Of a stretch of 64,000 bases of DNA, positions 1-18,032 are shown piece after piece (within the stretch, counting starts at the first letter, position 1; each line of letters begins with the position of its first letter). The notes under the pieces were generated by a model. The model did no database searches. It saw only the letters and a program-made list of their open reading frames with translations, and was not told the DNA's origin. The stretch is from assembly GCA_010356995.1 (NCBI GenBank), contig ML996692.1, positions 383,933-447,932 of the forward strand, in the 5' to 3' direction. The translations under genes and the position numbers were made by a program. Source of the DNA: Trichodelitschia bisporula (Eukaryota).

Positions 1-1335
1 GACCAGTCCACTACCTCATCCCCGCAATGTACAGTCACCTTTCTTGCGAAAGTTATTTCCTGAACAATCCATCGCCTGGTGAACCACTCCCTTTGCAGAA
101 GCTCGACAAATGCCTGCAACTCTTCCTTGGCTTGTGGTGATGCCAAAGCTTCAGTATTGATGAACTCCAGAATCTCAGAAACAAAACGCATACCAGCATC
201 GCTTGTGGGGAGCTAGGGCCGAGCCAGACACAAAGATTCTCTGCCTTCTGACATATTCCGCCCATTCTGCGTACCTGGGTGTTGCGTTCTTGAACGTCTT
301 CTTGACAGATGCATAGTGCATCAATCCACATCCGCCTAGCAGCGTCAGGGCGTCGGAAATGGTGCAATGCGACATAGAGATTCTGAGTCACAGAATAATC
401 CCTCAGGCCGTCCAGATCCTGAGAGAATATTTGTATGGTCTCTTTCTGTTTGGTGTCTCCCCAGACGTAGGACAGAGTCTCATAGTGAGGGGGCGTATTT
501 AGGGCAGAGGGCCTATCCAGGTCCAAGGTGTACACTTCGAGGGATACCACAATCGGGTCATCGGCGCAGCCAGGCCAGATATCCAGCAGGCGAATCTCAT
601 TTTTCTGAAGAGGACGATATATATTCCACGAAAGTCTTCACTCGATTCCAGATCCTACTCGGTTTGGGATTCATCGTGCAGTGAGTAAGGTCTGGGGACT
701 TGACATCTTTGCGGCGTCTGCGCCGAATGAAATCCATCGTGCCGTGAGGCGCTAGAGGCTTGAAGTTGTTGCGGCGTCCGCTCCAAAGGAAATCAGCTTT
801 GCATCGGCCACTCCAGTTAGGATCTGTTGTAAGATGTGAAAAAGGACTAGGAAGTGCTTACGAGGCTTGTACAAATCGAGTTGAGGACTTTGAAGCGCTT
901 TCGAGTCAGCTCGAGGAAAGAGATGCCTACCCCAGCCTGCTGGGTGGTGAAATGCGGCTTGGGGCCTTTTGAACAGACGACCCCGCTTCAGTAACTCAGC
1001 CGCATGTACGGTAGTACGACTGGTCTCTGAGAAGGATCCAGCCGCAGTGGAGGATGCCACTGTGGGCTAGGATTGGAAGAAGGCATCCAATAAACAGAAC
1101 CGGAGCACAAGGCGATTTCGACAATAGTTCCGCCTTCAGTATCTGCACGCACCCGAGCCTTGCGCGAATAAGTTGGGCATGGCGACATGATGAAGCGGTT
1201 GTCCGTGTCCTCGAAGAATTCCGTGAACACAACTCGAGTTGCACAGTTTGACGTTGGCCGTGGCCCAGGCACGCCAGGTGTGGTCGCAACTTCCGCCTCG
1301 GTTTTCGTAGCGTCGGACCCCTCCAGGCCCGACAT
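1..1335 (-). pseudogene. HET-domain (heterokaryon incompatibility) gene, disrupted; runs off the left end of the window
   Basis: Minus strand carries HET motifs YRPL..EIRLL (551-620), YETLSYVWGD, WIDALCICQED..ERNTQV..M and VWLG. The distal motif WFTRRWIVQE lies in a different frame (<180). Frame breaks near 185-200 and at the (AT)4 run 617-624; stops at 638-640, 655-657 and 988-990. The upstream boundary is uncertain. Confidence 0.75.
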
Positions 1336-1533: not shown

Positions 1534-2804
1534 ATGCTCGCCTCCACCAGGTCGTTGGTGATCGGGAGGACATCGGGGACACGGCGGCTCTTCTCCACCA
1601 CACCCCTCCGCAATGCCGATTTCACTCACGCCGTGATCGGTGGCGGTGCCGTGGGCCTAGCAATTGCCCGCCAGCTACAAGGCCGGGAAGGCACATCAAC
1701 AATTCTAATCGAAAAGCACGGTCACGTAGGCACCGAGACAAGCAGCCGAAACTCAGAGGTACGTCTACATAGCAGCCCTCAAGTCACGAACCCAATCCAT
1801 TAATATATACAAAAACCCAGGTCATCCACGCGGGGCTCTACTACGGCGCCAACACGCTCAAAACCTGCCTCTGCATCCACGGCCGCCACCTCATGTACGA
1901 CCTCTGCCGCCAGCACGCCATCCCGCACCGCAACTGCGGCAAGTGGATCGTCGCACAAGACGAACCGCAAATGGGCGAGCTGGAGCGCCTCCACGCCTTC
2001 GCCGCCTCCATCGGCGTCCCAACCCACTTCCTCGCCCGCGCCGTCGCCCACGACCGCGAACCCGACGTCCGCGCCGAAGCCGGCGTCCTCGAGAGCCCCA
2101 CCACGGGCATCATCGACAGCCATGCCTACATGCAGTATCTGCAGGGCTCCTTCGAGGACCGAGGCGGTATCTGTGCGTTGCGTTCTCCCGTGACGCGCGT
2201 TGTGCCTGTGCGTGCTGGTGCTGGTGGCTGGGAAATCTGGACGGAGGGGCCTGATGCTACGTGTGTGACGGCTGAGGCAGTGATTAACTCGGCGGGGTTG
2301 TACGCTGTTGCGCTTTCGAATTCGATTTTGCCGCCGGAGCGCCACCGCGAGGCGCATTTTGCAAAGGGCTCTTATTTTGCGTATGCGGCGTCCAAGCCTG
2401 CACCTAAGACCCTGGTGTATCCGGCACCGAGACCGGGGCACGGTGGTTTGGGCACGCATTTGACGCTTGACATGGCGGGTCGAGTGCGCTTCGGGCCGGA
2501 TGTTGAGTGGATTGATGACCCGAGTGACTATAGCGTCAACGAGTCACGACTGGGCGAGGCGTTGGATGAAATCCAGACCTACTTGCCTGGCATTGACAGG
2601 GACGCAATCCGGCTGGATTATGCGGGCATCCGGCCCAAGCTCGGCAGGATGAGCGCCGTGGTGAGCGGGAAAGGCTTTCAGGATTTTTACATTGCCAAGG
2701 AGGAGGGGTTTGAAGGCTTCATCAATTTGCTGGGGATTGAAAGTCCGGGGTTGACGAGTTCACTGGCAATTGGCGAGGAGGTGGAGAAACTGTTGTATGG
2801 GTAG
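1534..2804 (+). CDS. L-2-hydroxyglutarate dehydrogenase-like FAD-dependent oxidoreductase (mitochondrial)
   Basis: VIGGGAVG Rossmann motif; [17 protein letters not shown] joined across GT..AG intron 1759-1820; [30 protein letters not shown]; Arg/Ser-rich presequence. Confidence 0.92.
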
Positions 2805-3096
2805 ATCTTTCCCTATGCATAAACTTGAGTCTTTCCAACAGCGGACGCAGCTTGGATTAGTACCAGGTCGAATGTGGTCCTTCGAGCGCCCGCCTCGGCT
2901 AGCCCATCGGACTGGGGTTGCTGCCCGCAGAATTGACAGCTCCCGCGGCATCTCGCCCATCAGAAACGGGAGGCACTCTGGCGTTTGCCTTCTTGCGCGT
3001 ATCCGCAAGCTCTTCCTCCACTTGCGAGTCGTAATCGGCGTAGGAAGCGACTATCGACTCGGCATCTCTGGCCATGTAGGTTTCCTTTTTCCGGTC

Positions 3097-6000
3097 CTAT
3101 TTACTCTCAGCTTCATTGCTTAGCGCGTCATGGCCAGCAGAATAGTCCAGATCTGACAAGTCCTGGGGTTCGAATTTGTCCGGACCCAATAAGCAGCACT
3201 CATTCTCTCCACCCAAACCCCTCAAGACCTCGGACACGCGAGGCCGTGAATTGCCGTCGGGATCGAGCATGCTCTTCACAAGATCCCGGAGCTGAGTGCT
3301 GTTGCAAAGCTGATTCCGGCGGAAAGAGGGTTTCAGCAAGCTAAGATTATCGAACAGGCTGGAGGAGAATGTGTCGAGCCAATCCCTTACGACTTCAAGG
3401 CTTGATGAATAATAGACATTTCCGACCGAATTGGGAACCAAAGCCTCAAACAGGCGCGTTCGCTGTCGAGGCTCGCTTGAGATGGTAGCCATCATTTCGG
3501 TATAAATGGCGCCAAGGGGGAAGATGTCGGATTTGGTCGAAAAGATCTGCCTGGTTGTGAAGCTGTCACGGTCCATGTACTTCTCGGCTTCTTCGTCTGG
3601 ATTTAAGCCAAAGGTCAGAAGGCCCGAGAGGTAAATCTTATAGTATGTGTCTGGGTCGGTCTCAGTTGGCTGGCACATTCGCACAAGAAGGATTCCCGGA
3701 TGAAGATTTCCGTGGCAGAAACCGGAGGCGTGGATGTGGTTAAGTGCTGAAGCAATGCAGCTGAAGAAGCGCACAATGTGTTGCTTCACCGGACTTGCTG
3801 TCTCGGCACCCCCGAGACGAGGACTCAGACCTTCTTCCGTACTGTTGAGGAACTGGTCCAACGTCCAACTGATGGCTGGATAAATCAACATTGGCATTTT
3901 GTCGGGAAGTTCATAGTAGCCAACGCTTTGCACAATGTGGCTGTGGCTGAACTTCTTGAGCCAGAGATATTCTTCGGGGCCTTGACGCTTGCGCGAGATT
4001 TTGCAAGTAAGGTTCCAGTTTTTCCAGCGAACGCGTCGAAGGTCGAAACCTCTTGTCACCTTCGTTGTCTTCTGGTACTCCAAAGGTACGTCGGAGGCGT
4101 TCGCATACGTCGCAGTATCTCCATGGCCCGTCCAATTGGCAAATGGGTTCTCCGCTGGTGAGCTCGACCCCTCCAGAATCAGAGACTCCAGATGGGGAGC
4201 GCTGCTGTGTTGCCAAATCTTTTCAAACACCTCAAACTTCGAGTTTTCAGTCGCTTCTGCAAAATCTGCCCTCCTTTGCAAACCAGATGCGGATTCGATG
4301 CTGCTGTCCGTGCGATGGGAGTATTTCTGATGCCGGCGCAGATCTTTCTCGTACCGAAAACGCTCGCCGCACACGGGACAGTAATTCTTGCTTGAAGTGA
4401 TAGGGGGAGTTTGTGGGCCTTGGGAGGACGAGATTTCAGTCGCTTTTGTAAAATCGGTCCTCTGCGAGCCAGATGCCGACTTCTCGCTCAAAGCGATAGA
4501 GGAACTTACTGGGCCCCGGGAGGACGTGATTTCAGGCGCTTTTCCAAGATCGGTCGTTTGTAAACCAGATACCGGTTCCGGGCTCTGAGTCGTAACACTT
4601 CCGCGTCGACCACCGATGATCATCTTGGCCGCATCGTCGCCAGCAGGCTTCAGCTCAACTCTCCTACGCTGAAACTCCAACTCAAAGCTGTTGGTCGCAT
4701 CGATGCTCATCCCGGCCTCATCTACAGCCGGCTCGACACCCATGCTCATGGTTCCAGGCCCAGGAGGCACCAGAGCATCAGGGCCAGACTTGCTACCCGA
4801 GCTGCTTTCATGGAGGCTTGAAGTGCGACGGGAACTTGCTGGGCCTTGGGAGGACGATGCCGTTGGCGGAGAGGGGCCATCCGCATCCGATAACCGCTTT
4901 GGGATCTTCGCAGGCATATGACGTGTCAGAGCCAACAGGGTTTCCAAAGATGCCACATGCGCTAAAAGCCTTTCATTGAAGGACCCGAGACGAGGATGAT
5001 TGCTGGCTGGAGCGGAGGGCGATAGAGTGACGTCGCTAAACTCGGCTATGTCGGACAATGCAGAGTAAGCAGTTTCGCTGATGCGGGTCAAAACGCCGTC
5101 AGACCCTTCTAGTCGTTGGAATTCTGGTTCGGCCAGAAGGCGTTGGAGCTCGACGGTCACATTGTTAAGAGAGTACACTAGAGGCAGCTATTAAAGCATG
5201 TTCCAGCAAATAGAACTGGTACGCAAGAGGGAGCGAGAGAAGAAACAATAATGTCCAGAGAAGGTGCAGATAAGAAGAGCAGACTTACACATAAGGCTGG
5301 TCTTGTTCCCCTTGTCTTGTTCGTCCACCAAGTGCGAAACGGTGTTCTTCAATAGGTCCAGGCGCCCCAGAGTTGGAATGACCATTTCCGACGGTTTATG
5401 CGGCCCGTCGCATTGCCAACAGCGCTGGTGATTACAATCGGGGCTTAAACACTGCGGCGTCCGCGGTGTTGTGCTGACGAGCCATGCAGCGTGGCATCGG
5501 CAGCAATGCCATGTTTCCGACCGGATATCGGGGGAGGGGGGTTTGCTAGACGAGGGGTCGGGAATGTCATTGGGACGAGGAGCCGATGAAACTTGGGAAA
5601 GGTCGGCTGGAGCAGTTAGTACGGTGTCGAGCGCTGCCTGAAGTGAAGCAGATTTAGTCGAGTCTGCCGCAATTATGGGCGAGCTCATAAATTCGACAAG
5701 CAAATCTACAATGGAGTTTTTTACTTCACGAGTGGCGTCGGGATGAAGAGCTGCCATGGTGAGGGCGTACACGAATTTGGAAGAGGCGAGTTGTTCCACC
5801 AGCGGCGAGCCACAATGATCGACTAGAAATAAGGTCAGGTCGAGGGTAAGATGCTGTACCACTATGGTTGGCTGCTGGAGGCGCTGCATCAGAGACCGCG
5901 CAACGACTTCAAAACCAAGATCTGGGCGCATAGCGGCCATGCTGTCCACAAGAGACCGCAACTGTTGAGATGTCTCAGGCGATAACCCAGAATGAGTTAC

Positions 6001-9000
6001 GACGGCAACAACGGAGTCGAATTCCCAAGCGATTGCTTCAAAGTCTTCCGACATTTGAATGCGGTCTTTGGCAGGTGAACTAATTGTTGGTGGAACACCT
6101 TTTAGTCCTAGCATGGACGCCACGGACTCTCGCAACTCGGTATCTTGCGCTAGTTGTAGTCGATCACCGTTATCGGGAATCCGTGCAAGGGTAACGCGCA
6201 ATATTGAGTCATCAACTTCAAGCCCATCTAAGCTTGACGAAGCCAACTGCGCCGCATTCGAGTCTCCATATTCACAGTTGATAGTGTGAGTGTAGCTGGC
6301 AGTACGATTCGTTGCCTTGCCAGGACCGGATTTGACCCTGGAAAAGCTTCGGAGTTCTCCAAAAACACGTAGCATTTCCTTCATACGGTCGTCGTCAAAG
6401 GACGCTGGTATGTTGCTGATCGATAGGAGGTTCGGCGAAAGGTTAAGGCCAGGTATAGCCGCACTTGGAGCCTTCCCTTTACCGCCACCCGAAAACCCAA
6501 GACGTTGCGAAACAAAGTTATGACGTTTCAGTCCAGCCTCAATCTCAGGCCACTGGCTAGCCGCCTTCAAGGCCTCGGCATCGATCTTGGCCCCCCGGTC
6601 GAGAAGCAGCGTGATCTTCGACCCCTCGGCTCCGCTCGCCATGGCACATGTAAGAGCTGTACCAGCAGGACCAGAGATATTCACGTCCGCGCCAGCGTCC
6701 ATAAGGCGGATGGCACTCTTCCAGTCATTCATAGAAAGTGCTGCGTGTAGCACAGGCTCTCCTGACTTGTTGCGGGAATTTAGATCGAAGCCTTGCTCCA
6801 CAAGATACCGTAATACATTGACGTTATTGTCGCATGCAGCAAGCAGAATTCGTGAGCGTTCGAACTCTGATGTAGAATCTGTACAGGAGTGAAAGCGGAA
6901 CAAAAGCTCCATAACTTCCACTGGAGCATTCGCAGCGGCGGCCTCTAGGAAGCGGGGCATGTCCTCCGCAGTAATGCGGTGCTTACGAATAACGAGGAAA
7001 TGCTCTACAACTGACGAGTGACCAGTGTTGATGGCAGAATATAGAGGAGTTTCTTCTTTGGCGTTCCTCGCATCAAGGTTCGCCCCGTGATCGAGCAGAA
7101 TCGAGCAAATCGAGCGGTGGCCGTTTTCAGCGGCAAGATGGAGAGGTACATTCCTTTCGTTGTCGAGGTAATTGACGTTCGCGCCAGCGTCAAGCAAAAT
7201 GTGGGTGATCACAGAGATGCCGGCAGAAGCGGCCTGGTGCAGGGCAGAGGAGCCGTCGCGAGAACTCGGAGAGTTCACTGCCACACCAGATTTCAGGAGC
7301 AAATCGACTACGTCGGGATGACCAGCATAAGCTGCGATGTGGAGAGGATTGCCTTTTTTGGGATCTGCCCCTGCTAGGAGGAGAGTCCTAACAATCTTGT
7401 GGAAGCCGCGAGAAGCCGCATATCGAACTGGCGTGTCCACGGTCTCTTCCCCCGCCGAGGCGTCTGCATCCGCGCCTGCTGCGAGAAGTAACTCGACGAC
7501 GGTATCGTGCCCTCCGAGACATGCCAGATGCAGGGCACGAACATTGCTGCGGGGATTTCCTCCCGCTTCGGCATTGGGATCGGCACCGGCCCGGAGGAGG
7601 CATTCCACAATGGCGCGGTACCCCATCGAAGTCGCAATATGCAGGGCTGTGGTCTCCAAAACATTTCGTGAGTTGCTTCCGGAGTTCAGGTTGGCGTCCG
7701 CTCCCTGCGCTATGAGCAGCTGTACCATAGCGAGATTGCCACCCCGACAGGCGACCTGGAGCGGAAACCCTCGAGAAAAACTGAGGGCGTTGGCGTCGGC
7801 GCCGTACTCGAGTATTTTTCGCACTATGTCAAGATCGCCACCGAGAATTGCAGCGTGTAATGGCATACCCAAATCTTTGACGTCTTCGTTGATGTCCTCT
7901 CCTGAAGCAAGGAGCATTTCCACCTCGTCTTTGAGCTTCTGGAACGCGGCCAAATGTAACGGCGAGTCCTTTTTCTGTTCTAAAGCGATGCTCACAGGTC
8001 CAACAGAGCGAAGGGAGTCCGTCTGCGCTTCGGCCCCGGCTGCTGCTTGGTCCGAGTTCATATCGTCGTCTCCGGAATCAACGCCCCGCGGTATGGCGAA
8101 GAGGGCAAGCTGTTCCAGATGCCCTCCAAGATGCTGACGAAACTGGGTCGGTGTAACTGTAATAACGTCGTGCTTTTGAATGTGCGGATTTAACCCCCTG
8201 AGAGTCTGCTCCCATTCGTCACACAAGGGACAGCTGGCGGCAGGAATGCGCTCGACCTGCCGCTGGCTCACGTTGACAACCGCCTGTATTTGCTGCTCAC
8301 CAATCTGCTGCGCGTGCTGGTGGCGTAGATGTTCTTTGAACGCATATTGTGTTGGAAATACCATGGACGAGCAAAAATGACATTGGTAGTCCTTTCGGTG
8401 CATCTCGAGCTCATGTGAAAACCAAGCATGACGGTCGCCGAACATTTTGACGTCACACTCGTCGAATGTGCATATGTATGGCTTCAGATCCTGAAGAACA
8501 TGTTTTCTGGATCGTGGTTAGCCGCTGCTAAAGTACGAAATCACACTCTTGGTGACTGACCTCCAGGAACGCTGGCGGCGCGCTTGAACTATTCCCCAGC
8601 AATATGGGCATTCAAAAGTTGGCGTTCCAGATGAGACCCTTCCCAGCTCTACCACATGCAGCTGGCTGCTACTTGACGTATCTGCGACAGAAGTTGCATC
8701 AGACATCTCAGATTGCAGATCATCGGGAATGTTTTCGATCGCCTCGACAACTGCAGGTAGCAGTGTTGAAGCGGTGGTAGGCGCAAGAGTGCTGGTGGGC
8801 TTCGTTCTGATCGACGATGCACCGTCGCCGCGCATACCTATGTTGGGGTGCAGGTGCTCCTGCTTTTGAGCCCCGGCGTGGGAATCTTGAACTTCTGCTC
8901 TATGGGATCGAGGCTCTGCAGCGAGCTTGTCATGGTGTTCACGGCAGTATCGGAGAAACTGCCGCCTTTGGGTGATGGCCTTCCCTAGGCGGACCGCAAG

Positions 9001-9654
9001 CCACTCGTCCTTCTTGTTGTCGAGTTTTGGAAATTTTTGCCGAACATGGGAAACGTCGAAGGAATCATCAAAGGGGTCCAAAGGCGCTGCCGTGGCCTTG
9101 GCATAACGGTCCCGCGGCGTTGCATTTCTGATCAGCAGCGAAATCTTAAAGAGGCTGGATATGGAGTCCGATATTGACTTGTTCAGCTCCTCGGCCTCGG
9201 AAGCACTTTCAACGACTGAAGAAGCGAGGTCCGGGGGTTCGTCGTCCGAGTCCTCAAATTCGTCTTCAAACGAGACTGAGCCGGTCCTGTTGGGGCGCTC
9301 ACCAGATACAATTTCGGTAACTACAAAGTTCAGCTTATTTCGGCAACAAACGAAAAGTAACTTACGGTCCTCAACAGACTCATGCAGGTCTTCTAGCAGT
9401 TCATGGATGCGTGAAGCTAGCCGTGGGGCATCTCTCAGGCGATGCTCTAACGATGTAGCAACGCGGGCATCTTGGAGCGCGCCGATATTCCCGGCCCAGA
9501 TCCTCAATCGCCCTAGTTGGCCGGTGCAGTCATCGTAGGTGAAAGGGAAGCTCGCAGCCTCCTCGGAGCTTTTGAGGGAACCAAGCAGGTGGTTGAAGCT
9601 TCCCAGGCAATCTTTGGTCTGTTTTGCGATGGGAGAGAGTTCTGAGGCGTCCAT
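3097..9654 (-). CDS. ~2115-aa multidomain protein: helical N-terminus, C2H2 fingers, ankyrin repeats, RRM, VHS, Zn ribbon, C2H2, pseudokinase
   Basis: Three ORFs join in frame through GT..AG introns at 9321-9365, 8507-8560 (WR|KHVLQDLKPYICTF) and 5178-5288 (ATG T|TG TAC). Spliced length 6348 nt is a multiple of 3. Motifs: RLRIWAGNIGA..SLEHRLR, FECPYC, about 14 ankyrin repeats (~7965-6550). Confidence 0.8.
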
Positions 9655-10122
9655 GATGTCGACGGAACCCCTAAAGCTCGAGTTGCCACAAAGCAGCGGC
9701 GTAATCCGAGCTCAAGAGATGCAAAATTCGATCTCGGTCGCATTCATGAGCTACGGAATTTCTGACGCGGGCCTCTCCCTTAAAGTCGAGCCTTGAAGTT
9801 TTGAGTCCTTCGATTCTGCCTCGCTGACATGTTGCCTGGAGGGACTGTAAGATGGCCAAAGCCTCGTGAGTCCAAGGCGCTTTGAGCTTTGAGGATATGA
9901 TGTCGAGGTGAGGCTTTCCCGTCCCCACACCTGAAGAGGCTCTCTTGCAGCGCCAAGCGAGGGGCTGAACTTGGGTGATCTGCGGCTGGAGCCTGTTCAG
10001 CTCTGGCCCCCGCTCCCCCGCAGTGGCTCGTGGCTGGCCGAACTTAACGGCACTGTTCTCGTCGGACCCATTCAAAGTTGATGTTCGGCGGTCTCCTCAC
10101 TTACAACGCCTTTACCCTCGCG

Positions 10123-12056
10123 ATGAGCGGCATTGAGGTGGCGGGCCTCGTGCTCGGTGCGTTTCCCCTCTTAATAACTGCCTTGGAGCATTATCGTGAA
10201 AGCGCAGAGGTCCTGTCAGATTGGTGGAAGTTCAAGCGCGAGTATCGCAAGTGGAAGGATGAGGTGCGCTTCCATCAACTCGCCTTCGAACAGAACCTCG
10301 AAAAGTACCTATTGCCATTGATTGTCGATGATGATGAGCTTCAGTCTCTCATCTCCGACCCGGGTGGTGAACGATGGAGGCATCCAGAGCTTGAGGAGAG
10401 GTTGAAGACGCGCCTACCTCGCGCTTACGACCTCTACATTTCCACCATCGGAGATATGAACGAAACGATGGTAGAGCTCCAAAAGATGATGGGAGTGGAC
10501 AAAGTTCAGTTGCAGGAAAAGCTCAATGCTGAACGACCGGTACGTTCTTGTGGACGTCTGGGCATAAATTACCTGCCGCTCATGCTTCTCCAGGATTCGC
10601 CCTCCGAGAAGAAAGCCAAAAGCAAGCGCAAAAGACTTCCATCCAAGACCAATTTGGAATATGAGTTCCATCGCTTGAAGGCGAGCTTTGGCAAAGCAGA
10701 ACGAGCGAAGCTCTTTGGCGAAATATCCCATTACAATTTAAGATTGAAAGAACTCTTGGACACCAGCGACGAAATCAGCTCCTTACGTGCAACGAGACGC
10801 AACACGACAAAGGACCTGAGTCTCGTCAAGGGACTATCTACCTTTTGGAGGCATGCGACCAATGTCTTCAGGCTTGTGTATAAGGCGTGGAAGTGCGACT
10901 GTTCATCTCATCATCGCATAAACCTTTTGCTGGAGCATCGAACCACAATATCCGAGATCCGATTCAACTTACTCCTCCTCTATGCCCAAAATCTTCCTGA
11001 GCGCAAAGATGGCTGCTGGAGGTCTCTTGAAGCGCACATAAGTCTCGTCGAGGGTCTTTCCACTTCTATCTCCGAAGTCTCCCTTATAGGTCTGCGTTCC
11101 AAATCGGAGACAACGTTTGAAAGACGTCCACGGTCGAACCTTCGTTCGTACACCAACGAACCTTCCTTCAGCAAGACGTCAACGATGTGAGCCCAGGCCA
11201 CGTTATTTCGTGATGCCGTAAGACTGACAGTAGTAGGATCGACTCTACGGAATTGCCTCCACCAGCAGCAGTCCAGAAGCCATCTGTGGCCTGGGAGATT
11301 ACCCCACCTCCCTCTCGGGGCGCCAGCTTCCTCGAATCTGATGCAAGTGAAATCAGCAACCTTTGCCATTCGATCATGACCTGCGGCACACAAGAAAAGT
11401 GCCTAGGGTTTGTGAGGACGGATGAGCATTGCTACGTGTTGAATCCTGTCGCCATGGGTTCGTCCCCGCTGGACGAGAGCGACGCTGTGACACTAGGAAA
11501 CTTGCTTCGGAAAGACCTCAACTTTAAGCTCACGCGCAAACAGCGCTTCCAAGTTGCACTCACGCTGGCTAGCTCGCAGTTACAGCTGGACTCGACACCC
11601 TGGCTGCAGTCTGGTTGGAGCAAAGACGATATCGTTTTCCTTTGCCAGCCAGAGTCCGCCCGTATCGATGTTGAGCAGCCGTACATTTCCAGGGGTTCGA
11701 ATCTCGTCGCCACTGCCGCAAAGGGGCAGTCTACGGAGAATAGCATCCCCCAGCTGGGAATGATTCTTTTGGAGTTGTGCTTCAATACAGCATTTGAGAA
11801 CCACGAGATCCGCAAGAAGTACCTCTTGCCAAATGGCCAGTCGACTCCGTATATGGACCTCGCTGCGGCACTCGAATGGTGCAACCAGGAGGCGGCAGAA
11901 GAAGCTGGCCCGGATTTTGCGGATGCGGTCAAGTGGTGCCTTGGACAGTTTGGGTCCGCATCTTTGGATGAAACCAAAAGGCAAGAGCTTTATGAGAAAG
12001 TTGTGAAGCCGCTACAGTTCTGCCATAAACAATTCGAAATCAGCAGTCAGATGTGA
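10123..12056 (+). CDS. ~609-aa protein with HeLo-like N-terminus and kinase-like C-terminal domain (DUF7580-like, from recall)
   Basis: Starts MSGIEVAGLVLGAFPLLITALEHY; introns 10540-10593 and 11187-~11236; C-terminus QRFQVALTLASSQLQLDSTPWL..WSKDDIVF..LGMILLELCF..FADAVKWCL. Confidence 0.8.
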
Positions 12057-13156
12057 AATAAGACATCTGCCGAAAGTCTAGAAGCAGTTGGAGGTCAAGG
12101 CCGTCAGGACATTGCATACGGAGTACGGCATTGGGCATTGTGAATACAGCATGTTACAGCCGAGGTATGCTATTCCCAAGCCCTGGGGAGTCCTTTGCTG
12201 ATGTAATATGACAGTCAGAGGAGCGCTTGTGTTAATCGGTGGATTTGAGCCTTTGTACAAACAGAAGGCTGTACGACATGGTTACATGCATATTGGGCGC
12301 CAGAGGTGCAGCATGCAGGGCAGAGAGGGGGGGTTAAGCATCTGGCGGGCAAGTCAATAGCATTCGAGAGTTTGGTTCAAATACCCTGGCGGATCATTTG
12401 TCATGAAAAGCAATTGAATATCCCGTTGGGATTCATGTCGGTTATAGATGTGGTAACTCCGCTCTGACTGAAGCCAGAGCGATGGTACGAGTATTGGCCT
12501 CAGGCACCGACATGGAATAGTTGTCCAGGCGTTTATGACGCATATAGGATGGGTTTCGAAGTGATCGATATTTTGACATTTTGAGCCTGGTCACATCCCT
12601 GCTACCTACATGGATACCCCTGCTGTGCCAAGGCTGATAGACCCAGAGACGCCAGTATCTCTCCCAAATCACCCCCATCATGATATACTGCTTCCTAGGC
12701 TTTTATGTAATGATAACGACGTCTATATATCATCTACTAGGTATAATAGATATGTAAGCTCATTTCGGTGACGTTATAGTATCTAAAAGTATGGTAGTTA
12801 TGATAAGCTGCTGCCAAAGTGTTGCCAAAAAGCTCCTTTCTGTGGCATTTGGACATTCGGTGGCAAAGTCACTAGAGCTAAGCCTATTTAAGAAATAAGT
12901 AGGCCCTAAGCGCGCTTGACAGGGGGACCCTGCAAAATGCTGCATTTTAGGGGTCCAAATGCGGCACTTTGCAGAAACGCTTCCGGTATTTTCATTTATG
13001 GATGTCTGACGATGCCTAATTTCTGCCTTAGGCAAGAAAAACTGGTATTTTAGGGTCCAAAATGTTAAATGTCGATCACTTCGAAACCCACCCTAAATTT
13101 TCACAGCTCTTTATAGCCCCGCCATCACCATCAGCAGCAAATCCGATGCTCTAAAA

Positions 13157-16042
13157 ATGTCCGACCCACTACTCCAATACTTTAGAAAGGCCCTCCCGGA
13201 AGAACTCGCCGGCCTCTTGGGATCTCAGGTCAACCGTGTTGAAACGGCGCAGTTCCGCGATATCCTCGAAGAACCGTTGGTCCGCGTGCTTCTTGGCCAC
13301 GAACACAACAGTGAGACACAGAATGTCCAGCTCAAAGATTTTTCATGCTGGAGCGACTACATCTTTCACCGGCTAGGCCTCTTGCTAGGCAATAGACAGG
13401 AAAATGCCCCAGCTACGTCTGAAGATACTCCCGCTTACAGACAACATCTCTTTTTCCTTGTTGCTCTCGCAAGTCTAGGAGCATTCTTGCAGAGCAACGT
13501 TACCGGACCGCCCCTACCCTTTTCTTCCGCCAAAGTTCTTCTGCCTGAAGCGATCAACTCTGACTCTGCATCTCTTGCTGCTGTTCGTCTGGCCTTGGCC
13601 CTGTCTTTAACAGTGGACGGTGAAGCTGCTTACAAGCTCACCCCAAACCTTGAGCTGCTTTGCCTTGCGGACACCATCTTAACCTCCCCACCGATTTCAA
13701 AGCACATCAAACCTGCAAAATGGGCCCGGATAAGGGTGAACTTCATTCATCAGCGGCTCCTTTCCGCAAATGCACCAACATTGCAGCAGTCCGTTTACGA
13801 TGGGCTGAAGGACGTGGAAGCTCTCATATCAGATTCAGATCCCGAATCAGATCTCGTCGTGTCCTTTCTTCTTGAACGGGCCACCATTCACACTCACCAC
13901 GGATTTGACAAGCTTGCTCGGGAGGACCTCGAAAAAGCTGCGAAGCTAAGACACTTTGAGTTTGCGTTGACTGGCCTTCTGGGGAAGAGGACTCGCTATC
14001 AACAAAAAGATATCAGTCAGCTCGTGGTGCTAGCCCGCAGTGCCGATTCGTCTATCACAACATTAAACGGCGACGGCGAGGCCAGAGTCGTTGAGTCCGC
14101 TGATGTCTCACTCACTTCCACTCAGCCCAAGGCCTTGGACCTGAACGACGATACCTTGCTCGAGTCGATATCGTTCTCAGAGCGGCCAAAGCTATCAACA
14201 GACATCCAGGACGAGACGTCACTCCCCCCCAGTTTGGCGTCCATCGATCCCGAAAACCAGCCACAGCTTCACCCACTCGACTCCATCATCCTCCTCTCCC
14301 TTGCCTCCTCAATCACCAACACAGCACCTGAAAACGGCCTCACGCGCGAAGAAACACTTCCCTACGCCACGCGAGTCCTGGAAGGAGGCAGCTCGAACTG
14401 GCAGGTATACTCCCAAGCCCTGCTCATCCGCAGCAGAATCGAGGGCTACAAGTCCCGTACCATCGAACGCGGGCTCCTGCAGCTGCAAGCCATCGTCGAC
14501 CAAGTCATCGCCGAAACAACTTCCCTGGACGATAACGCTCCCGCTCCATCAACGTTCCTACCCCGTCCTAAGGACTCCGAGTCAGCCCCCGCCGACATCC
14601 GCCTCCTCTACATCTACGCCCTCGCCTCCCCCACTCGCTGGGGTCTCGAAGCCGAACTCGCCGCCAAATGGGTCAGTCTCGGCGGCCTCCGTTCCGCCCT
14701 CGAAATCTACGAGCGCCTGCAAATGTGGGCCGAGGCGGCGCTGTGTCTCGCCGCCACAGAGCGCGAAGACAAGGCCCGGCGCATGGTGCGCAGGCAACTC
14801 TTTCATCCTACCGCCGGTCCCGATGCCGTCGTGGATCCGGATTCCGAAGCCTGGACTGGTCCGCCGCGCGAGCCCGCACCCGCGGAAGCTCCGCGCCTTT
14901 ACTGCATCCTTGGGGATATGGACAAGGACCCGGAGATGTACGAGACGGCGTGGCGGGTGTCAAACCAGCGGTACGCGCGGGCACAGCGCTCCCTGGCGCG
15001 GTACTGGTATGAAAAGCGCGATCATGCGAAGGCATCTCTTGCGTATTCGCGCGCTCTGAAGGTGCAGCAACTGGATCATTCAACATGGTTTGCGTATGGC
15101 TGCGTGCTGCTTGAACTAGGAAAGTTTAAGCGCGCGGCCGAAGCTTTTTCGCGGGCCGTCCAGCTAGATGACGGAGATGCGGAGTCATGGAGCAACCTTG
15201 CGGCCGCGCTGCTGCATCAGGGGCCCCAGAATACAGCGGAAACCAAAGACGAACCCCTAAACGACACCCTAGACGAGGAATCCGCACCCACTACCCCCAC
15301 GAACCCGCAGAAATACAAAATTGACGCTCTCAAAGCCCTCAAGCACGCCTCCCGCCTCAAACACGACAGCTACCGCATCTGGGACAACGTGCTCACAGTC
15401 GCCGCCTCCCTCGACCCACCCTCCTGGTCTGATATCGTGACCGCGCAAAGGCGCATCATAGACCTGCGCGGCGCAACCGACGGTGAGAAGTGTATTGACG
15501 TCCGCATCGTCGCCGCCACGCTCAACCACGTCGCCAGCCTCGTCGCCGACACACCCCCTCCTGCCGAAACCGAAGCCGACGCCGACGGGCCTGCAGACCC
15601 GCTTAATAGGCCTGGGCTCCCGCGCATGCTGGTCCAGATGTTCACGGCTATTACGCCGCTGATCACTGCCTCGGCGCCGCTGTGGCATCTTGTTGCGCGG
15701 CTGGCACGGCTGAGGAATAGGCCGGGCGCGGCGCTGGTGGCGGAGGAGAAGGCGTGGCGCGCGGTGGTTAATCAGCCGGGGTGGGAGCATGCGGTTGATG
15801 AGGGGACGTGGAAGGGGGTTGTGAATGAGACGCTACGGTTGGTGGAGGCGTATCGTGGATTAGGGCCCTTGGAGCGGACGGAGGGGCTGGGTGCGGGGGC
15901 GGGGGAGCTCGTGTGTAAGGAGTGGCGGTTTAAGGCGCGGAGTGCGGTGCGGAGTGTGCTTGGGCGTGCGAAGGTGGGGGTTTGGGAGGGAAGTGAGGGG
16001 TGGGAGGGGTTGCAGGAGGGGATGGAGGCGCTGAAGGGGTAG
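13157..16042 (+). CDS. EMW1: TPR protein EMW1/TTC27 homologue
   Basis: Uninterrupted 961-aa ORF; LTGLLGKRTRYQQKDISQLVV, LDLNDDTLLE, RTIERGLLQLQ, ALEIYERLQMW, TPR repeats. Confidence 0.9.
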   Translation: MSDPLLQYFRKALPEELAGLLGSQVNRVETAQFRDILEEPLVRVLLGHEHNSETQNVQLKDFSCWSDYIFHRLGLLLGNRQENAPATSEDTPAYRQHLFFLVALASLGAFLQSNVTGPPLPFSSAKVLLPEAINSDSASLAAVRLALALSLTVDGEAAYKLTPNLELLCLADTILTSPPISKHIKPAKWARIRVNFIHQRLLSANAPTLQQSVYDGLKDVEALISDSDPESDLVVSFLLERATIHTHHGFDKLAREDLEKAAKLRHFEFALTGLLGKRTRYQQKDISQLVVLARSADSSITTLNGDGEARVVESADVSLTSTQPKALDLNDDTLLESISFSERPKLSTDIQDETSLPPSLASIDPENQPQLHPLDSIILLSLASSITNTAPENGLTREETLPYATRVLEGGSSNWQVYSQALLIRSRIEGYKSRTIERGLLQLQAIVDQVIAETTSLDDNAPAPSTFLPRPKDSESAPADIRLLYIYALASPTRWGLEAELAAKWVSLGGLRSALEIYERLQMWAEAALCLAATEREDKARRMVRRQLFHPTAGPDAVVDPDSEAWTGPPREPAPAEAPRLYCILGDMDKDPEMYETAWRVSNQRYARAQRSLARYWYEKRDHAKASLAYSRALKVQQLDHSTWFAYGCVLLELGKFKRAAEAFSRAVQLDDGDAESWSNLAAALLHQGPQNTAETKDEPLNDTLDEESAPTTPTNPQKYKIDALKALKHASRLKHDSYRIWDNVLTVAASLDPPSWSDIVTAQRRIIDLRGATDGEKCIDVRIVAATLNHVASLVADTPPPAETEADADGPADPLNRPGLPRMLVQMFTAITPLITASAPLWHLVARLARLRNRPGAALVAEEKAWRAVVNQPGWEHAVDEGTWKGVVNETLRLVEAYRGLGPLERTEGLGAGAGELVCKEWRFKARSAVRSVLGRAKVGVWEGSEGWEGLQEGMEALKG

Positions 16043-16236
16043 ACGAGTGAAGCCACCCAGGTATGATACTTCATTCTAACAAGAATACAATTAGGCATTC
16101 GAACGTCTCCATATCAGCACAAGAGAGTCATAACCTGCCGCCCAATGTTCCCATCGGGATCCCAAAGACTAAGGAGGTACAAGAGCGCAAGGAAAAGAGG
16201 ATAAGAGCCACCCGGCCAGCCATCCCTGCTGCCGTT

Positions 16237-17053
16237 CTAGTCCGAGTCCGAACTCGAACTGCTGCTGCTCTTCCCACCCCGACTCCGGCTCCGGTGCTTA
16301 TGCTTCTTGCCATGGCCCGACGCAGCATACAACCCGCCCACCGCCGCCCCCGCAGGCCCATACGAATGACTGCTATGACTCCCATGATGGCTCCCCCCGT
16401 GGCTACTCCCCGCATACGAGCTCCCATACGCCAAGCCATCATCATTCTTCTTATCCTTCTTCTTCTTCTTCCTACATCCACGATTAGCCCCGCCCAACAC
16501 TACTCCGCACGCAGGAAGACTCACTTATCCCCACCCAAAAAATTCGCCGCAATCGCGCCGCCTATCGCACCCAACCCCCCATGCCCAACCTGATGTCCGA
16601 GAAACCCGCCCCCGGCGGCACCAAGGATCGTCTTCCCGAGCCCGCGCTCGCCGTCCACAGGCTGCCCATCGGGCCCGAGCGCGGGCGGCCCGCCGTACCC
16701 GCTGTCTGGCGGCGGGGCGCCGTAGCCCTGGCCCTGGCCTTGTGGGTGTTGGCCATAGCCGGGCGACGGGCCGCGGCCGTCGTCGTAGCCGCCTTGGTGG
16801 GGGGGGGCGCCGTAGGGCGCGCCTTGCTGGGGGGTGTGGGACTGGAGGGGTTAGTCTTGGGTTAAGGGAGTGAGGCTGGGAGGGGTACCTGTTGCGGGGG
16901 GTACGGTGAGCCGCCCCCGTAGGTGCCGCCGGGGTTCTGGGGGGGGTATTGCTGGTGTTGCTGGTCGCTGCCGTAGCTCTGCTGGCCGCCGTAGGAGGGG
17001 GGTTGGTGGCCGCCGCCGCCGCCGCTGCTGCTGTAGTACTCGTTGGAAGCCAT
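16237..17053 (-). CDS. Gly/Pro/Gln/Tyr-rich protein with glycine zipper and basic/Ser-rich tail
   Basis: ATG 17053 (MASNEYY); introns 16842-16888 and ~16472-16524; middle exon [40 protein letters not shown]; last exon ends SSSSDSD-stop. Confidence 0.75.
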
Positions 17054-18032
17054 AGGCGTGATATGAAGGAGGTAAGTTTGCGTAGGTTGATGCGATTCGG
17101 CCTCCGTTCCGGGTAGTTGTGTAGTGTCGAACAAAGTAGTACAGTAAAAGCCTCAGTCGTCTCTTCCCAAAGCGTCCACTGAGCCTTCCTCAGATCGAGA
17201 GGGGAAACAAAGCCTTAAATACCACTCGCGATCCCAGGCCCATCATCCCAACACTCCCCAGCCCTGATCCACCCGCCCATCACCAGCTGAGCACCCCCGC
17301 TTCATCAGCACCACTGGCAACCCCTCACCAGGCCCTTCCCCTCCCTCGCCAAGCCATATCGAGTCCTGACTGGTGCCCCTCACCGATCAAGGGCCTTCTT
17401 CACCGGGGGCAGTGCCCGCAGTGCAGCGCCGGCGCCGCCGTCTCCGTTGATCTCCCCTGCAGACTCACTGCGAGCGAAGCAAGCAGCACGCAAAGAAGCC
17501 TGCAAAGCAGCCATGCACTGCACCACCCCACCTGCTGACCCCGCGCCCCACGCCCATCGCGACATCCCGTATCCATCCCCATTCGTGCCTAAATCTCCTC
17601 ACGCCTGTCGTCCCACGCTCCTGCAGCCTTCAGCTCCTCCCCCCATGTGCAGTTGTGCATCGCGCATTGCATATCTTCGGCGCAACCGCGTCCCGGACCC
17701 GTTCTAGCCCCGCTCGACAGAACCCCGCGATGACGCCACTTACTTAGAAAGTCGTTACCTGCGGCGGGGCTGTGCAGGCTGGGCAGCCATCCCGTGCTCT
17801 GGGGCCGGGTGGCGGGCGGGTGGTTCCGGTCCGGGCGTGCCGGTGCCAAGATCGGGCGCCCGCGCCGGAGGAGAGTCGGCGGACGGGGGAGGGTCGGGTT
17901 GAGAACACATGTCGTGATGATGGAGCTTCATGGTGTTTCGTGTTGTATACATTTTCCACATCCAGTGCCCAGGACCAATCTAGTCCAACCGTTCCCACGA
18001 GTCCCATGTCCAACGCCTTAATGCACCCAGGT

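Follow-up and report, generated by a model that had tools for sequence, protein, structure and literature searches.

The DNA analysed here is a 64,000-nucleotide (nt) stretch of contig ML996692.1 of the fungus Trichodelitschia bisporula (assembly GCA_010356995.1, positions 383,933 to 447,932 of the forward strand; "the window" in what follows, numbered from its first letter). It carries three long open reading frames (ORFs) placed head to tail on the minus strand, at 9711-8518, 8517-5191 and 5187-3100. A first-pass annotation made from the letters alone had flagged the second half of the middle ORF as a run of housekeeping-type domains, an RNA recognition motif (RRM), a VHS domain and a zinc ribbon, set behind an ankyrin array. 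The ORF translation and the Pfam matches agree with this placement: all three segments lie where they were first seen, in one minus-strand frame and directly behind the ankyrin repeats. The flagged stretch is, however, the central part of something larger: the ankyrin array, the RRM, the VHS domain, the cysteine-rich motif and a pseudokinase encoded by the third ORF are parts of one expressed gene, referred to below as the mosaic gene. In order, its product consists of an N-terminal region, C2H2-type fingers, ankyrin repeats, RRM, VHS domain, cysteine motif, linker, a further C2H2 finger and the pseudokinase. The features of the gene are as follows.

3097..9654, minus strand: complete coding sequence, four exons (9654-9366, 9320-8561, 8506-5289 and 5177-3097, the last including the stop codon) totalling 2,115 codons
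8620..9654, minus strand: N-terminal region, residues 1-330, without family match
9321..9365, minus strand: intron 1, 45 nt, GT..AG, in frame and stop-free; a joint in the contigs
8146..8619, minus strand: C2H2-type zinc-finger region, residues 331-470, with patterns at residues 362, 392 and 442
8507..8560, minus strand: intron 2, 54 nt, GT..AG, interrupting a C2H2-type finger; a joint in the contigs
6556..7953, minus strand: ankyrin-repeat array, about residues 535-1000 (Pfam Ank_2, E 3.2e-61; Ank, E 2.5e-57, in 10 stretches)
6190..6438, minus strand: RRM fold, residues 1040-1122, nearest to RRM2 of the U2AF large subunit, with RNP1 and RNP2 eroded
5620..6048, minus strand: VHS domain of ESCRT-0/TOM1 type, residues 1170-1312 (Pfam, fold and profile; relatives P0004 and P0007)
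5407..5511, minus strand: cysteine-rich motif, 35 residues with seven Cys and two His, a presumed metal binder
5178..5288, minus strand: intron 3, 111 nt, GTAAGT..TAG, whose removal leaves the cysteine-motif and pseudokinase exons in one reading frame
4390..5177, minus strand: Ser/Thr/Pro-rich linker without Pfam match
4312..4383, minus strand: single C2H2 finger, residues 1688-1711 (pattern match; Pfam zf-C2H2, E 5.5e-4, 20.7 bits, under the cut-off of 25.2)
3160..4152, minus strand: pseudokinase, residues 1765-2095 (Pfam Pkinase, PF00069, 36.9 bits against a cut-off of 31.7)

The gene structure comes from assembled contigs of two sequencing runs, X3 and X4, of the same sample. Their label as RNA was a guess, accepted because the contigs carry three spliced joints. 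In each run the interval 3000-9800 is covered by a single contig (6,701 and 6,726 nt), and both contigs skip 9321-9365, 8507-8560 and 5178-5288, all three bounded by GT..AG on the minus strand; a DNA contig, X1, is collinear with the window and lacks the three joints. The joined exons form one open frame from an ATG at 9654 to a stop codon ending at 3097, so that the reading frame does not end behind the cysteine motif: an in-frame splice leads to a further 690 or more codons with the lone C2H2 finger and the pseudokinase. The downstream ORF, 5187-3100, is without a methionine codon for roughly its first 90 codons. At intron 3 there are two candidate acceptor AGs, 10 nt apart (5178-5190), of which the contigs use the distal one; the proximal AG, ending at 5188, would stop the frame seven codons on and give a protein without the kinase part. 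Since intron 1 is in frame and contains no stop codon, its retention would merely insert 15 residues, and the translation P0002 runs through it.

For the flagged stretch itself, the sequence searches and the structural model used a query of 380 residues encoded by 6477-5338. Run with phmmer against the PDB, it gave 30 matches at E up to 10. The 15 strongest all fall on RRM2 of human U2AF65 (E 2.4e-6 to 2.1e-5), and the first match outside U2AF65, another RRM protein, follows at E 0.0058. The NCBIfam profile for the U2AF large subunit, TIGR01642, matches residues 694-781 of the ORF over profile positions 295-376 with E 1.9e-11, its score of 43.2 bits falling far short of the 310.3 bits set for full-length members. 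Pfam RRM_1 (PF00076) reaches 15.4 bits on the 380-residue segment (E 0.017), under its cut-off of 20.7, and no RRM family matches the whole middle ORF at E up to 1.

The AlphaFold model was built from a six-row alignment, from which full-length U2AF proteins were omitted because their third RRM could be forced onto the VHS region. In it the RRM (model residues 17-97) has block means of the predicted local distance difference test (pLDDT) of 74-92, apart from a loop at 54-59 under 50, and the expected beta-alpha-beta-beta-alpha-beta order of elements (strand 17-23, helix 29-37, strands 42-49 and 64-70, helix 73-83, strand 94-97). Foldseek against the PDB returned 65 matches at E up to 0.001, and the approximately 45 rows listed are all RRM chains; ranks 1-16 are all U2AF65, headed by the RRM2 of 5w0h (E 1e-5, template modelling (TM) score 0.85 on the target, 34% identity). 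The resemblance to U2AF65 first noticed from the letters alone is therefore borne out by phmmer, TIGR01642 and Foldseek alike: the U2AF large subunit shares the fold and is the best match of all RRMs in both sequence and structure, and the heptapeptide F-G-E-L-R-S-F is identical in the window and several fungal U2AF proteins. The setting is quite unlike that of U2AF, with a single RRM in a 2,115-residue ankyrin protein and no RS region, RRM1 or U2AF homology motif (UHM). A reading of the domain itself as a UHM, which is marked by an R-x-F motif after helix 2, was rejected, as inspection by eye found no such motif.

Among 18 U2AF RRM2 relatives, at least 80% agree at 34 columns, and the window retains 21 of these, with F-G-E-L-R-S-F, C-E-Y-x-D and the hydrophobic core among them. 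RNA contacts in RRMs are typically made by aromatic and basic residues of the RNP1 and RNP2 consensus. Among the 13 altered columns are those of the Lys and Gly of RNP2, replaced by Leu and Ser, and the core of RNP1, where S-K-G-x-A-F has become T-A-S-Y-T-H with a three-residue insertion. The supposed loss of the RNP aromatic residues is thus right for most of the consensus but incomplete, as one Tyr stays. The segment is a diverged, partly disabled relative of the RRM2 of the U2AF large subunit, and it probably does not bind RNA in a sequence-specific manner.

Behind the RRM, Pfam VHS (PF00790) scores 33.6 bits on the whole ORF (residues 872-944) and 37.3 bits on the segment, against a cut-off of 29.8; the match spans profile positions 44-118 of 141. 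The corresponding helical domain of the AlphaFold model (model residues 135-290) has pLDDT above 90, its helices, over 135-288, forming the right-handed superhelix of about eight helices typical of VHS, and a VIA-align comparison of model residues 147-292 with 48,161 chains put VHS domains on top: the TOM1L1 VHS (3rru_B) at Z 13.3, with 131 of 141 residues aligned at a root-mean-square deviation of 2.4, then GGA2 and STAM2 (both 12.8), plant TOL9 (12.7), Hrs (12.5), the UVSSA VHS (11.9) and the CID of Pcf11 (11.8). Alignments at Z 12.5-13.3 cover 131-145 residues, with 9-19% identity to the solved VHS domains. For helical folds a Z near 13 is just above the background stated for VIA-align, so the fold match backs the Pfam assignment and is no substitute for it. 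A CID was considered and rejected, the Pcf11 CID scoring below the VHS rows and the Pfam match being to VHS.

A profile built from three sequences (the window's domain and those of two relatives, P0004 and P0007) matched TOM1/TOL9 first in the PDB (E 3e-4), followed by STAM2 (2.2e-3), STAM1 (0.025) and Hrs (0.13). As TOM1L1, GGA2, STAM2 and Hrs all match in fold, and the profile finds TOM1/TOL9 first, the domain is a VHS of the ESCRT-0/TOM1 type rather than of Hse1/STAM in particular. The original label, an Hse1/STAM-like VHS, accordingly keeps its family and loses its specificity. The superhelix is common to the VHS domains of STAM/Hse1, Hrs/Vps27, TOM1/TOL and the GGAs; in Hse1 and STAM, however, it is N-terminal and followed by UIM and SH3, whereas here it is internal (residues 1170-1312 of 2,115) and followed by a pseudokinase, and no Pfam match to UIM, SH3, FYVE or GAT appeared at E up to 1. 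VHS domains of the ubiquitin-binding class contact ubiquitin through residues on helices 2 and 4. The residue at the position of the helix-2 Trp of STAM2, which we take to be a ubiquitin contact, is Ser in the window, Trp in P0004 and Phe in P0007.

The cysteine-rich motif that follows was first called a zinc ribbon. A cysteine-rich motif is certainly present, and the pattern C..C.{6,25}C.{1,6}C.H..C..C has a single match, 5410-5505, when the window is translated in all six frames; a ribbon is another matter, since the motif has no significant family match (best Pfam E 0.18; no IBR at E up to 10) and lies in a part of the model (residues 304-380) with pLDDT below 50. Its only PDB matches are to RING2 of ARIH1 (E 0.24 and 3.1, not significant), with which six Cys and a C-W-x-C-x-G-P stretch line up. 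Compared with ARIH1/HHARI, a RING-between-RING (RBR) protein, it lacks RING1 and IBR and has no Cys to complete a second metal site. A Pro of the window aligns with the ARIH1 position that is Ser in the solved construct and that is presumably the catalytic Cys of the native enzyme. The motif is probably metal-binding, and its spacing recalls RING2 of the Ariadne-type ubiquitin ligases.

The linker beyond intron 3 contains, together with the region just past it, three imperfect copies of a unit of about 20 residues (approximately 4240-4600, minus strand), reading S-G-[LS]-Q-x-x-D-[LF]-x-[KE]-A-x-E-I/N-[ST]-S; two stand ahead of the lone C2H2 finger and one behind it. In the kinase-like domain, the catalytic loop reads H-G-N-L-H-P-G-I where PERK has H-R-N-L-K-P-S-N, and the DFG region reads, in the alignment with PERK, L-S-G-L; the loop of P0007 is H-G-A-I-R-P-R-L. 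HGN in the window and HGA in P0007 thus replace HRD. Both the window protein and P0007 lack the catalytic Asp, the Asn of the catalytic loop and the Asp of DFG; the domain of the window probably does not phosphorylate.

Toward the other end of the protein, residues 1-330 have no Pfam match (E up to 1 or 10) and no PDB sequence match (E up to 5), and in residues 331-470 Pfam zf-C2H2_4 reaches 25.3 bits, under its cut-off of 27. In the ankyrin array a tandem-repeat scan found no internally conserved DNA repeats such as diversifying fungal receptors show; the sole tandem DNA repeat found in the gene is 26 nt long with a 9-nt period, at 7090-7115. There is no sign of a paralogue within the window, where tblastn with eight protein segments returned the gene itself and one weak ankyrin self-match.

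Relatives are few. Against 1.84 billion representative proteins, phmmer with the 380 residues gave 20 matches at E up to 0.001, of which none reached 1e-10. The best stretch lies on the RRM part in 18 of the 20 (28-42% identity) and on the VHS part in the remaining two, P0004 and P0007; three of the RRM matches had a second stretch whose position was not shown, and the alignment rows that reach the VHS part are those of P0004 and P0007 only. Pfam, applied to eight of the 20, found six RRM proteins, VHS alone in P0004, and VHS with Pkinase in P0007. Of the 16 matches looked up, eight have a named organism: the label is that of a U2AF subunit in four (Mixia, Synchytrium, Puccinia and Thelohanellus), and the other four are given as hypothetical or RRM-domain proteins (Neoconidiobolus, Naganishia, Entophlyctis and Nowakowskiella), genera which we take to comprise seven fungi and one myxozoan. 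An ascomycete protein or a near-identical donor did not appear, and the window's own protein is missing from the matches as well. No protein among the 1.84 billion matched the RRM and VHS parts together, which agrees with the early remark that no described protein of this architecture was known. Two queries, the kinase part and, at near and longer lengths, the middle ORF's residues 680-1060, had no match at E up to 0.001 in a word-indexed homologue search; in metagenome contigs, patterns from the VHS and kinase alignments picked out 589 and 284 stretches, respectively, none of which tblastn confirmed. Literature searches on VHS domains with pseudokinases in fungi gave no match, and those on acuF with zinc-finger and ankyrin, and on integrated domains with NLR, VHS and RRM, gave nothing bearing on this protein.

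The most informative relative is P0007, a protein of 686 residues that aligns first to the VHS part (E 1e-12) and then, in the same order, to the kinase part (E 5e-39, 29% identity over 361 columns). It shares the pseudokinase type, the H-G-x catalytic loop and the motifs HSHI.Q and WTL.QFL; it differs in having no Ank or RRM Pfam match, and in the alignment its VHS and kinase parts are not separated by a cysteine motif, a long linker or a C2H2 finger. P0004 is a 158-residue fragment with VHS only, and the VHS-like domains of the two are 29-31% identical to that of the window. Because P0007 has a VHS-like domain and, behind it, the same pseudokinase, the VHS domain belongs to an older VHS-pseudokinase module, and the idea that it was captured singly behind the ankyrins does not hold up; the 29% identity across this shared order suggests that it has long been retained. 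On these comparisons neither the RRM (best identity 32-42% to U2AF RRM2 relatives) nor the VHS domain (9-19% to solved VHS domains) seems to have been copied recently from a host gene. What had been described as degenerate copies of splicing and ESCRT-0 domains can be kept as a description of diverged, partly disabled copies of a U2AF RRM2 and an ESCRT-0/TOM1-type VHS.

The surroundings of the mosaic gene include the following.

56-637, minus strand: HET-domain ORF (HET, E 1.7e-23), about 2.5 kb past the 3' end of the mosaic gene
1773-2801, plus strand: flavin adenine dinucleotide (FAD) oxidoreductase
about 10120-12056 (interval 10048-12056), plus strand: DUF7580 gene, divergent from the mosaic gene (DUF7580, E 2.5e-19, in the second ORF)
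13097-16039, plus strand: TPR protein, 981 codons

The HET and DUF7580 neighbours, together with the short introns of the mosaic gene, suggest a filamentous ascomycete. The start codons of the DUF7580 gene and the mosaic gene are about 470 base pairs apart. The first ORF of the DUF7580 gene has no Pfam match, and the predicted N-terminus is hydrophobic and rich in Gly and Ala; a literature search on DUF7580 found no paper. The G+C content rises to 0.62-0.63 over 14001-18000, an interval overlapping the TPR ORF, against about 0.54 elsewhere. The rest of the window holds housekeeping genes, among them an Rpb2-type polymerase subunit, a cullin, Sec5 and an isocitrate/isopropylmalate dehydrogenase.

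Some features of the mosaic gene recall the integrated domains of NOD-like receptors (NLRs): domains of housekeeping type with altered active residues, carried on a repeat protein, and a kinase-like C-terminus. The C-terminal kinase domains of Sordariales NLRs have been proposed as integrated decoys, within NLRs, in the part of PMC12258605 available. The window protein differs in that it has no NACHT or NB-ARC domain (no Pfam match at E up to 1 on the three ORFs), no Walker A motif (G-x4-G-K-[ST]) anywhere in its 2,115 residues, no known N-terminal effector domain and no highly similar donor that could be found. With neither NACHT/NB-ARC match nor Walker A, an NLR or STAND receptor was rejected as an identity for this protein.

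What might such a protein do? The recognizable modules would all be binding folds in which the usual chemistry is disabled: ankyrin repeats, an RRM without its RNA-contact face, a VHS domain and a dead kinase. For this reason a non-catalytic protein-interaction scaffold or sensor, with the flagged stretch as the central part of a single expressed fungal protein of 2,115 residues, is the likeliest reading, to which we give about an even chance. Several observations weigh against it. The proposed role is read from domain content, and none of the searches of representatives, homologues and metagenome contigs found an orthologue. The call of a pseudokinase is based on a Pfam score five bits over the cut-off and on two pairwise alignments, the AlphaFold model of the kinase domain being unusable (mean pLDDT 30.9). 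The Tyr kept in RNP1 makes non-canonical RNA binding conceivable. The RNA evidence consists of assembled contigs from one sample, which can fuse overlapping transcripts and lose rare isoforms. Finally, the G+C content at third codon positions (GC3) is 0.565 for the gene, below the 0.61-0.76 of six housekeeping ORFs in the window, as would fit weak constraint or low expression; by domain, none stands out sharply.

The last two points lead directly to other explanations. A contig that spans two genes is no proof of a single transcript, and the alternative AG upstream of the acceptor used at intron 3 would end the frame after seven codons; one could therefore suppose an ankyrin-RRM-VHS-cysteine gene that ends after the intron-3 donor region, followed by a pseudokinase gene of its own, with the contig merging their transcripts. 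This is very improbable: the joint actually seen removes a clean GT..AG intron of 111 nt without loss of the frame, the downstream frame stays open for about 90 codons ahead of its first Met, and P0007, colinear with both the VHS and the kinase parts, has the two on one chain, which supports the one-gene reading. The low GC3, the degenerate functional motifs and the lack of an orthologue could instead mark a young chimeric gene without selected function, made by exon shuffling or by fusion of neighbours, whose domains are drifting relics. We consider this unlikely, given an open frame of 2,115 codons with three correctly spliced introns and a full-length RNA contig, the retention of 21 of 34 conserved structural columns in the RRM, and a VHS-pseudokinase order held in common with P0007 at 29% identity; the RRM and VHS domains are also compact in a high-confidence model, and such well-formed models, at pLDDT 80-96 from six aligned sequences, argue against decayed relics. 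Apparently intact folds might equally be working ones, the RRM binding RNA and the VHS domain ubiquitinated cargo, linked to partners of the ankyrin repeats, and in favour of this one can cite the RNP1 Tyr, an acidic helix 1 that is also retained, and a VHS profile nearest to the ubiquitin-binding ESCRT-0/TOM1 class. The chance of this seems small, with the RNP2 Lys and Gly and the S-K-G-x-A-F core of RNP1 replaced and three residues inserted, a Ser in place of the STAM2 helix-2 Trp (whose part in ubiquitin contact is, as said, our assumption), and a VHS domain placed internally, where known sorting adaptors have theirs at the N-terminus.

The first-pass annotation preferred integrated decoys. 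In a developed form, the disabled RRM, VHS domain, RING2-like motif and pseudokinase would mimic U2AF, ESCRT-0, an RBR ligase and a kinase; a mycoparasite effector or a mycovirus protein would bind the bait, and the ankyrin or N-terminal part, or the DUF7580 neighbour, would respond. Several consecutive domains do copy housekeeping folds with altered active residues, the neighbours are a HET-domain ORF and the head-to-head DUF7580 gene, and the lack of any RRM-plus-VHS match in 1.84 billion representatives is what a fast-evolving gene would lead one to expect. That VHS domains can be effector targets follows from one of the fold matches here, 9rdc, a structure in which an oomycete effector is bound to a plant TOL VHS/ENTH domain, and the proposal made for fungal NLR kinase domains (PMC12258605, in the part available) points the same way. 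Such a sensor is nevertheless quite unlikely in this case: Pfam and PDB searches recognized no nucleotide-binding oligomerization domain and no cell-death or signalling domain, so that, with no NACHT/NB-ARC match and no Walker A, the plant-style decoy model has no receptor core here; VHS and pseudokinase form a pre-existing module (P0007) rather than independent captures; 32-42% identity to U2AF RRM2 relatives leaves no recent donor; and the ankyrin array is without the internally conserved DNA repeats of diversifying fungal receptors. A version that does away with the receptor core would be a surveillance protein independent of NLRs, in which disabled hub domains (U2AF RRM2, VHS, RING2-like motif, kinase) serve as baits for mycoviruses or mycoparasites, with output through the N-terminal region without family match or through the divergent DUF7580 neighbour; this we regard as improbable.

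If the anatomy described here is right, a U2AF-type RRM2 and an ESCRT-0-type VHS domain can last as compact folds outside their usual context, here within an ankyrin and pseudokinase protein and, for the RRM, without the RNA-contact residues, and a VHS domain followed by a pseudokinase would be a rare module. The mosaic gene may then serve as an expressed candidate for asking whether bait-like domains occur outside NLRs, a question which the part of PMC12258605 available discusses at present for NLRs only. It remains one orphan among the many lineage-specific multidomain proteins of filamentous fungi.

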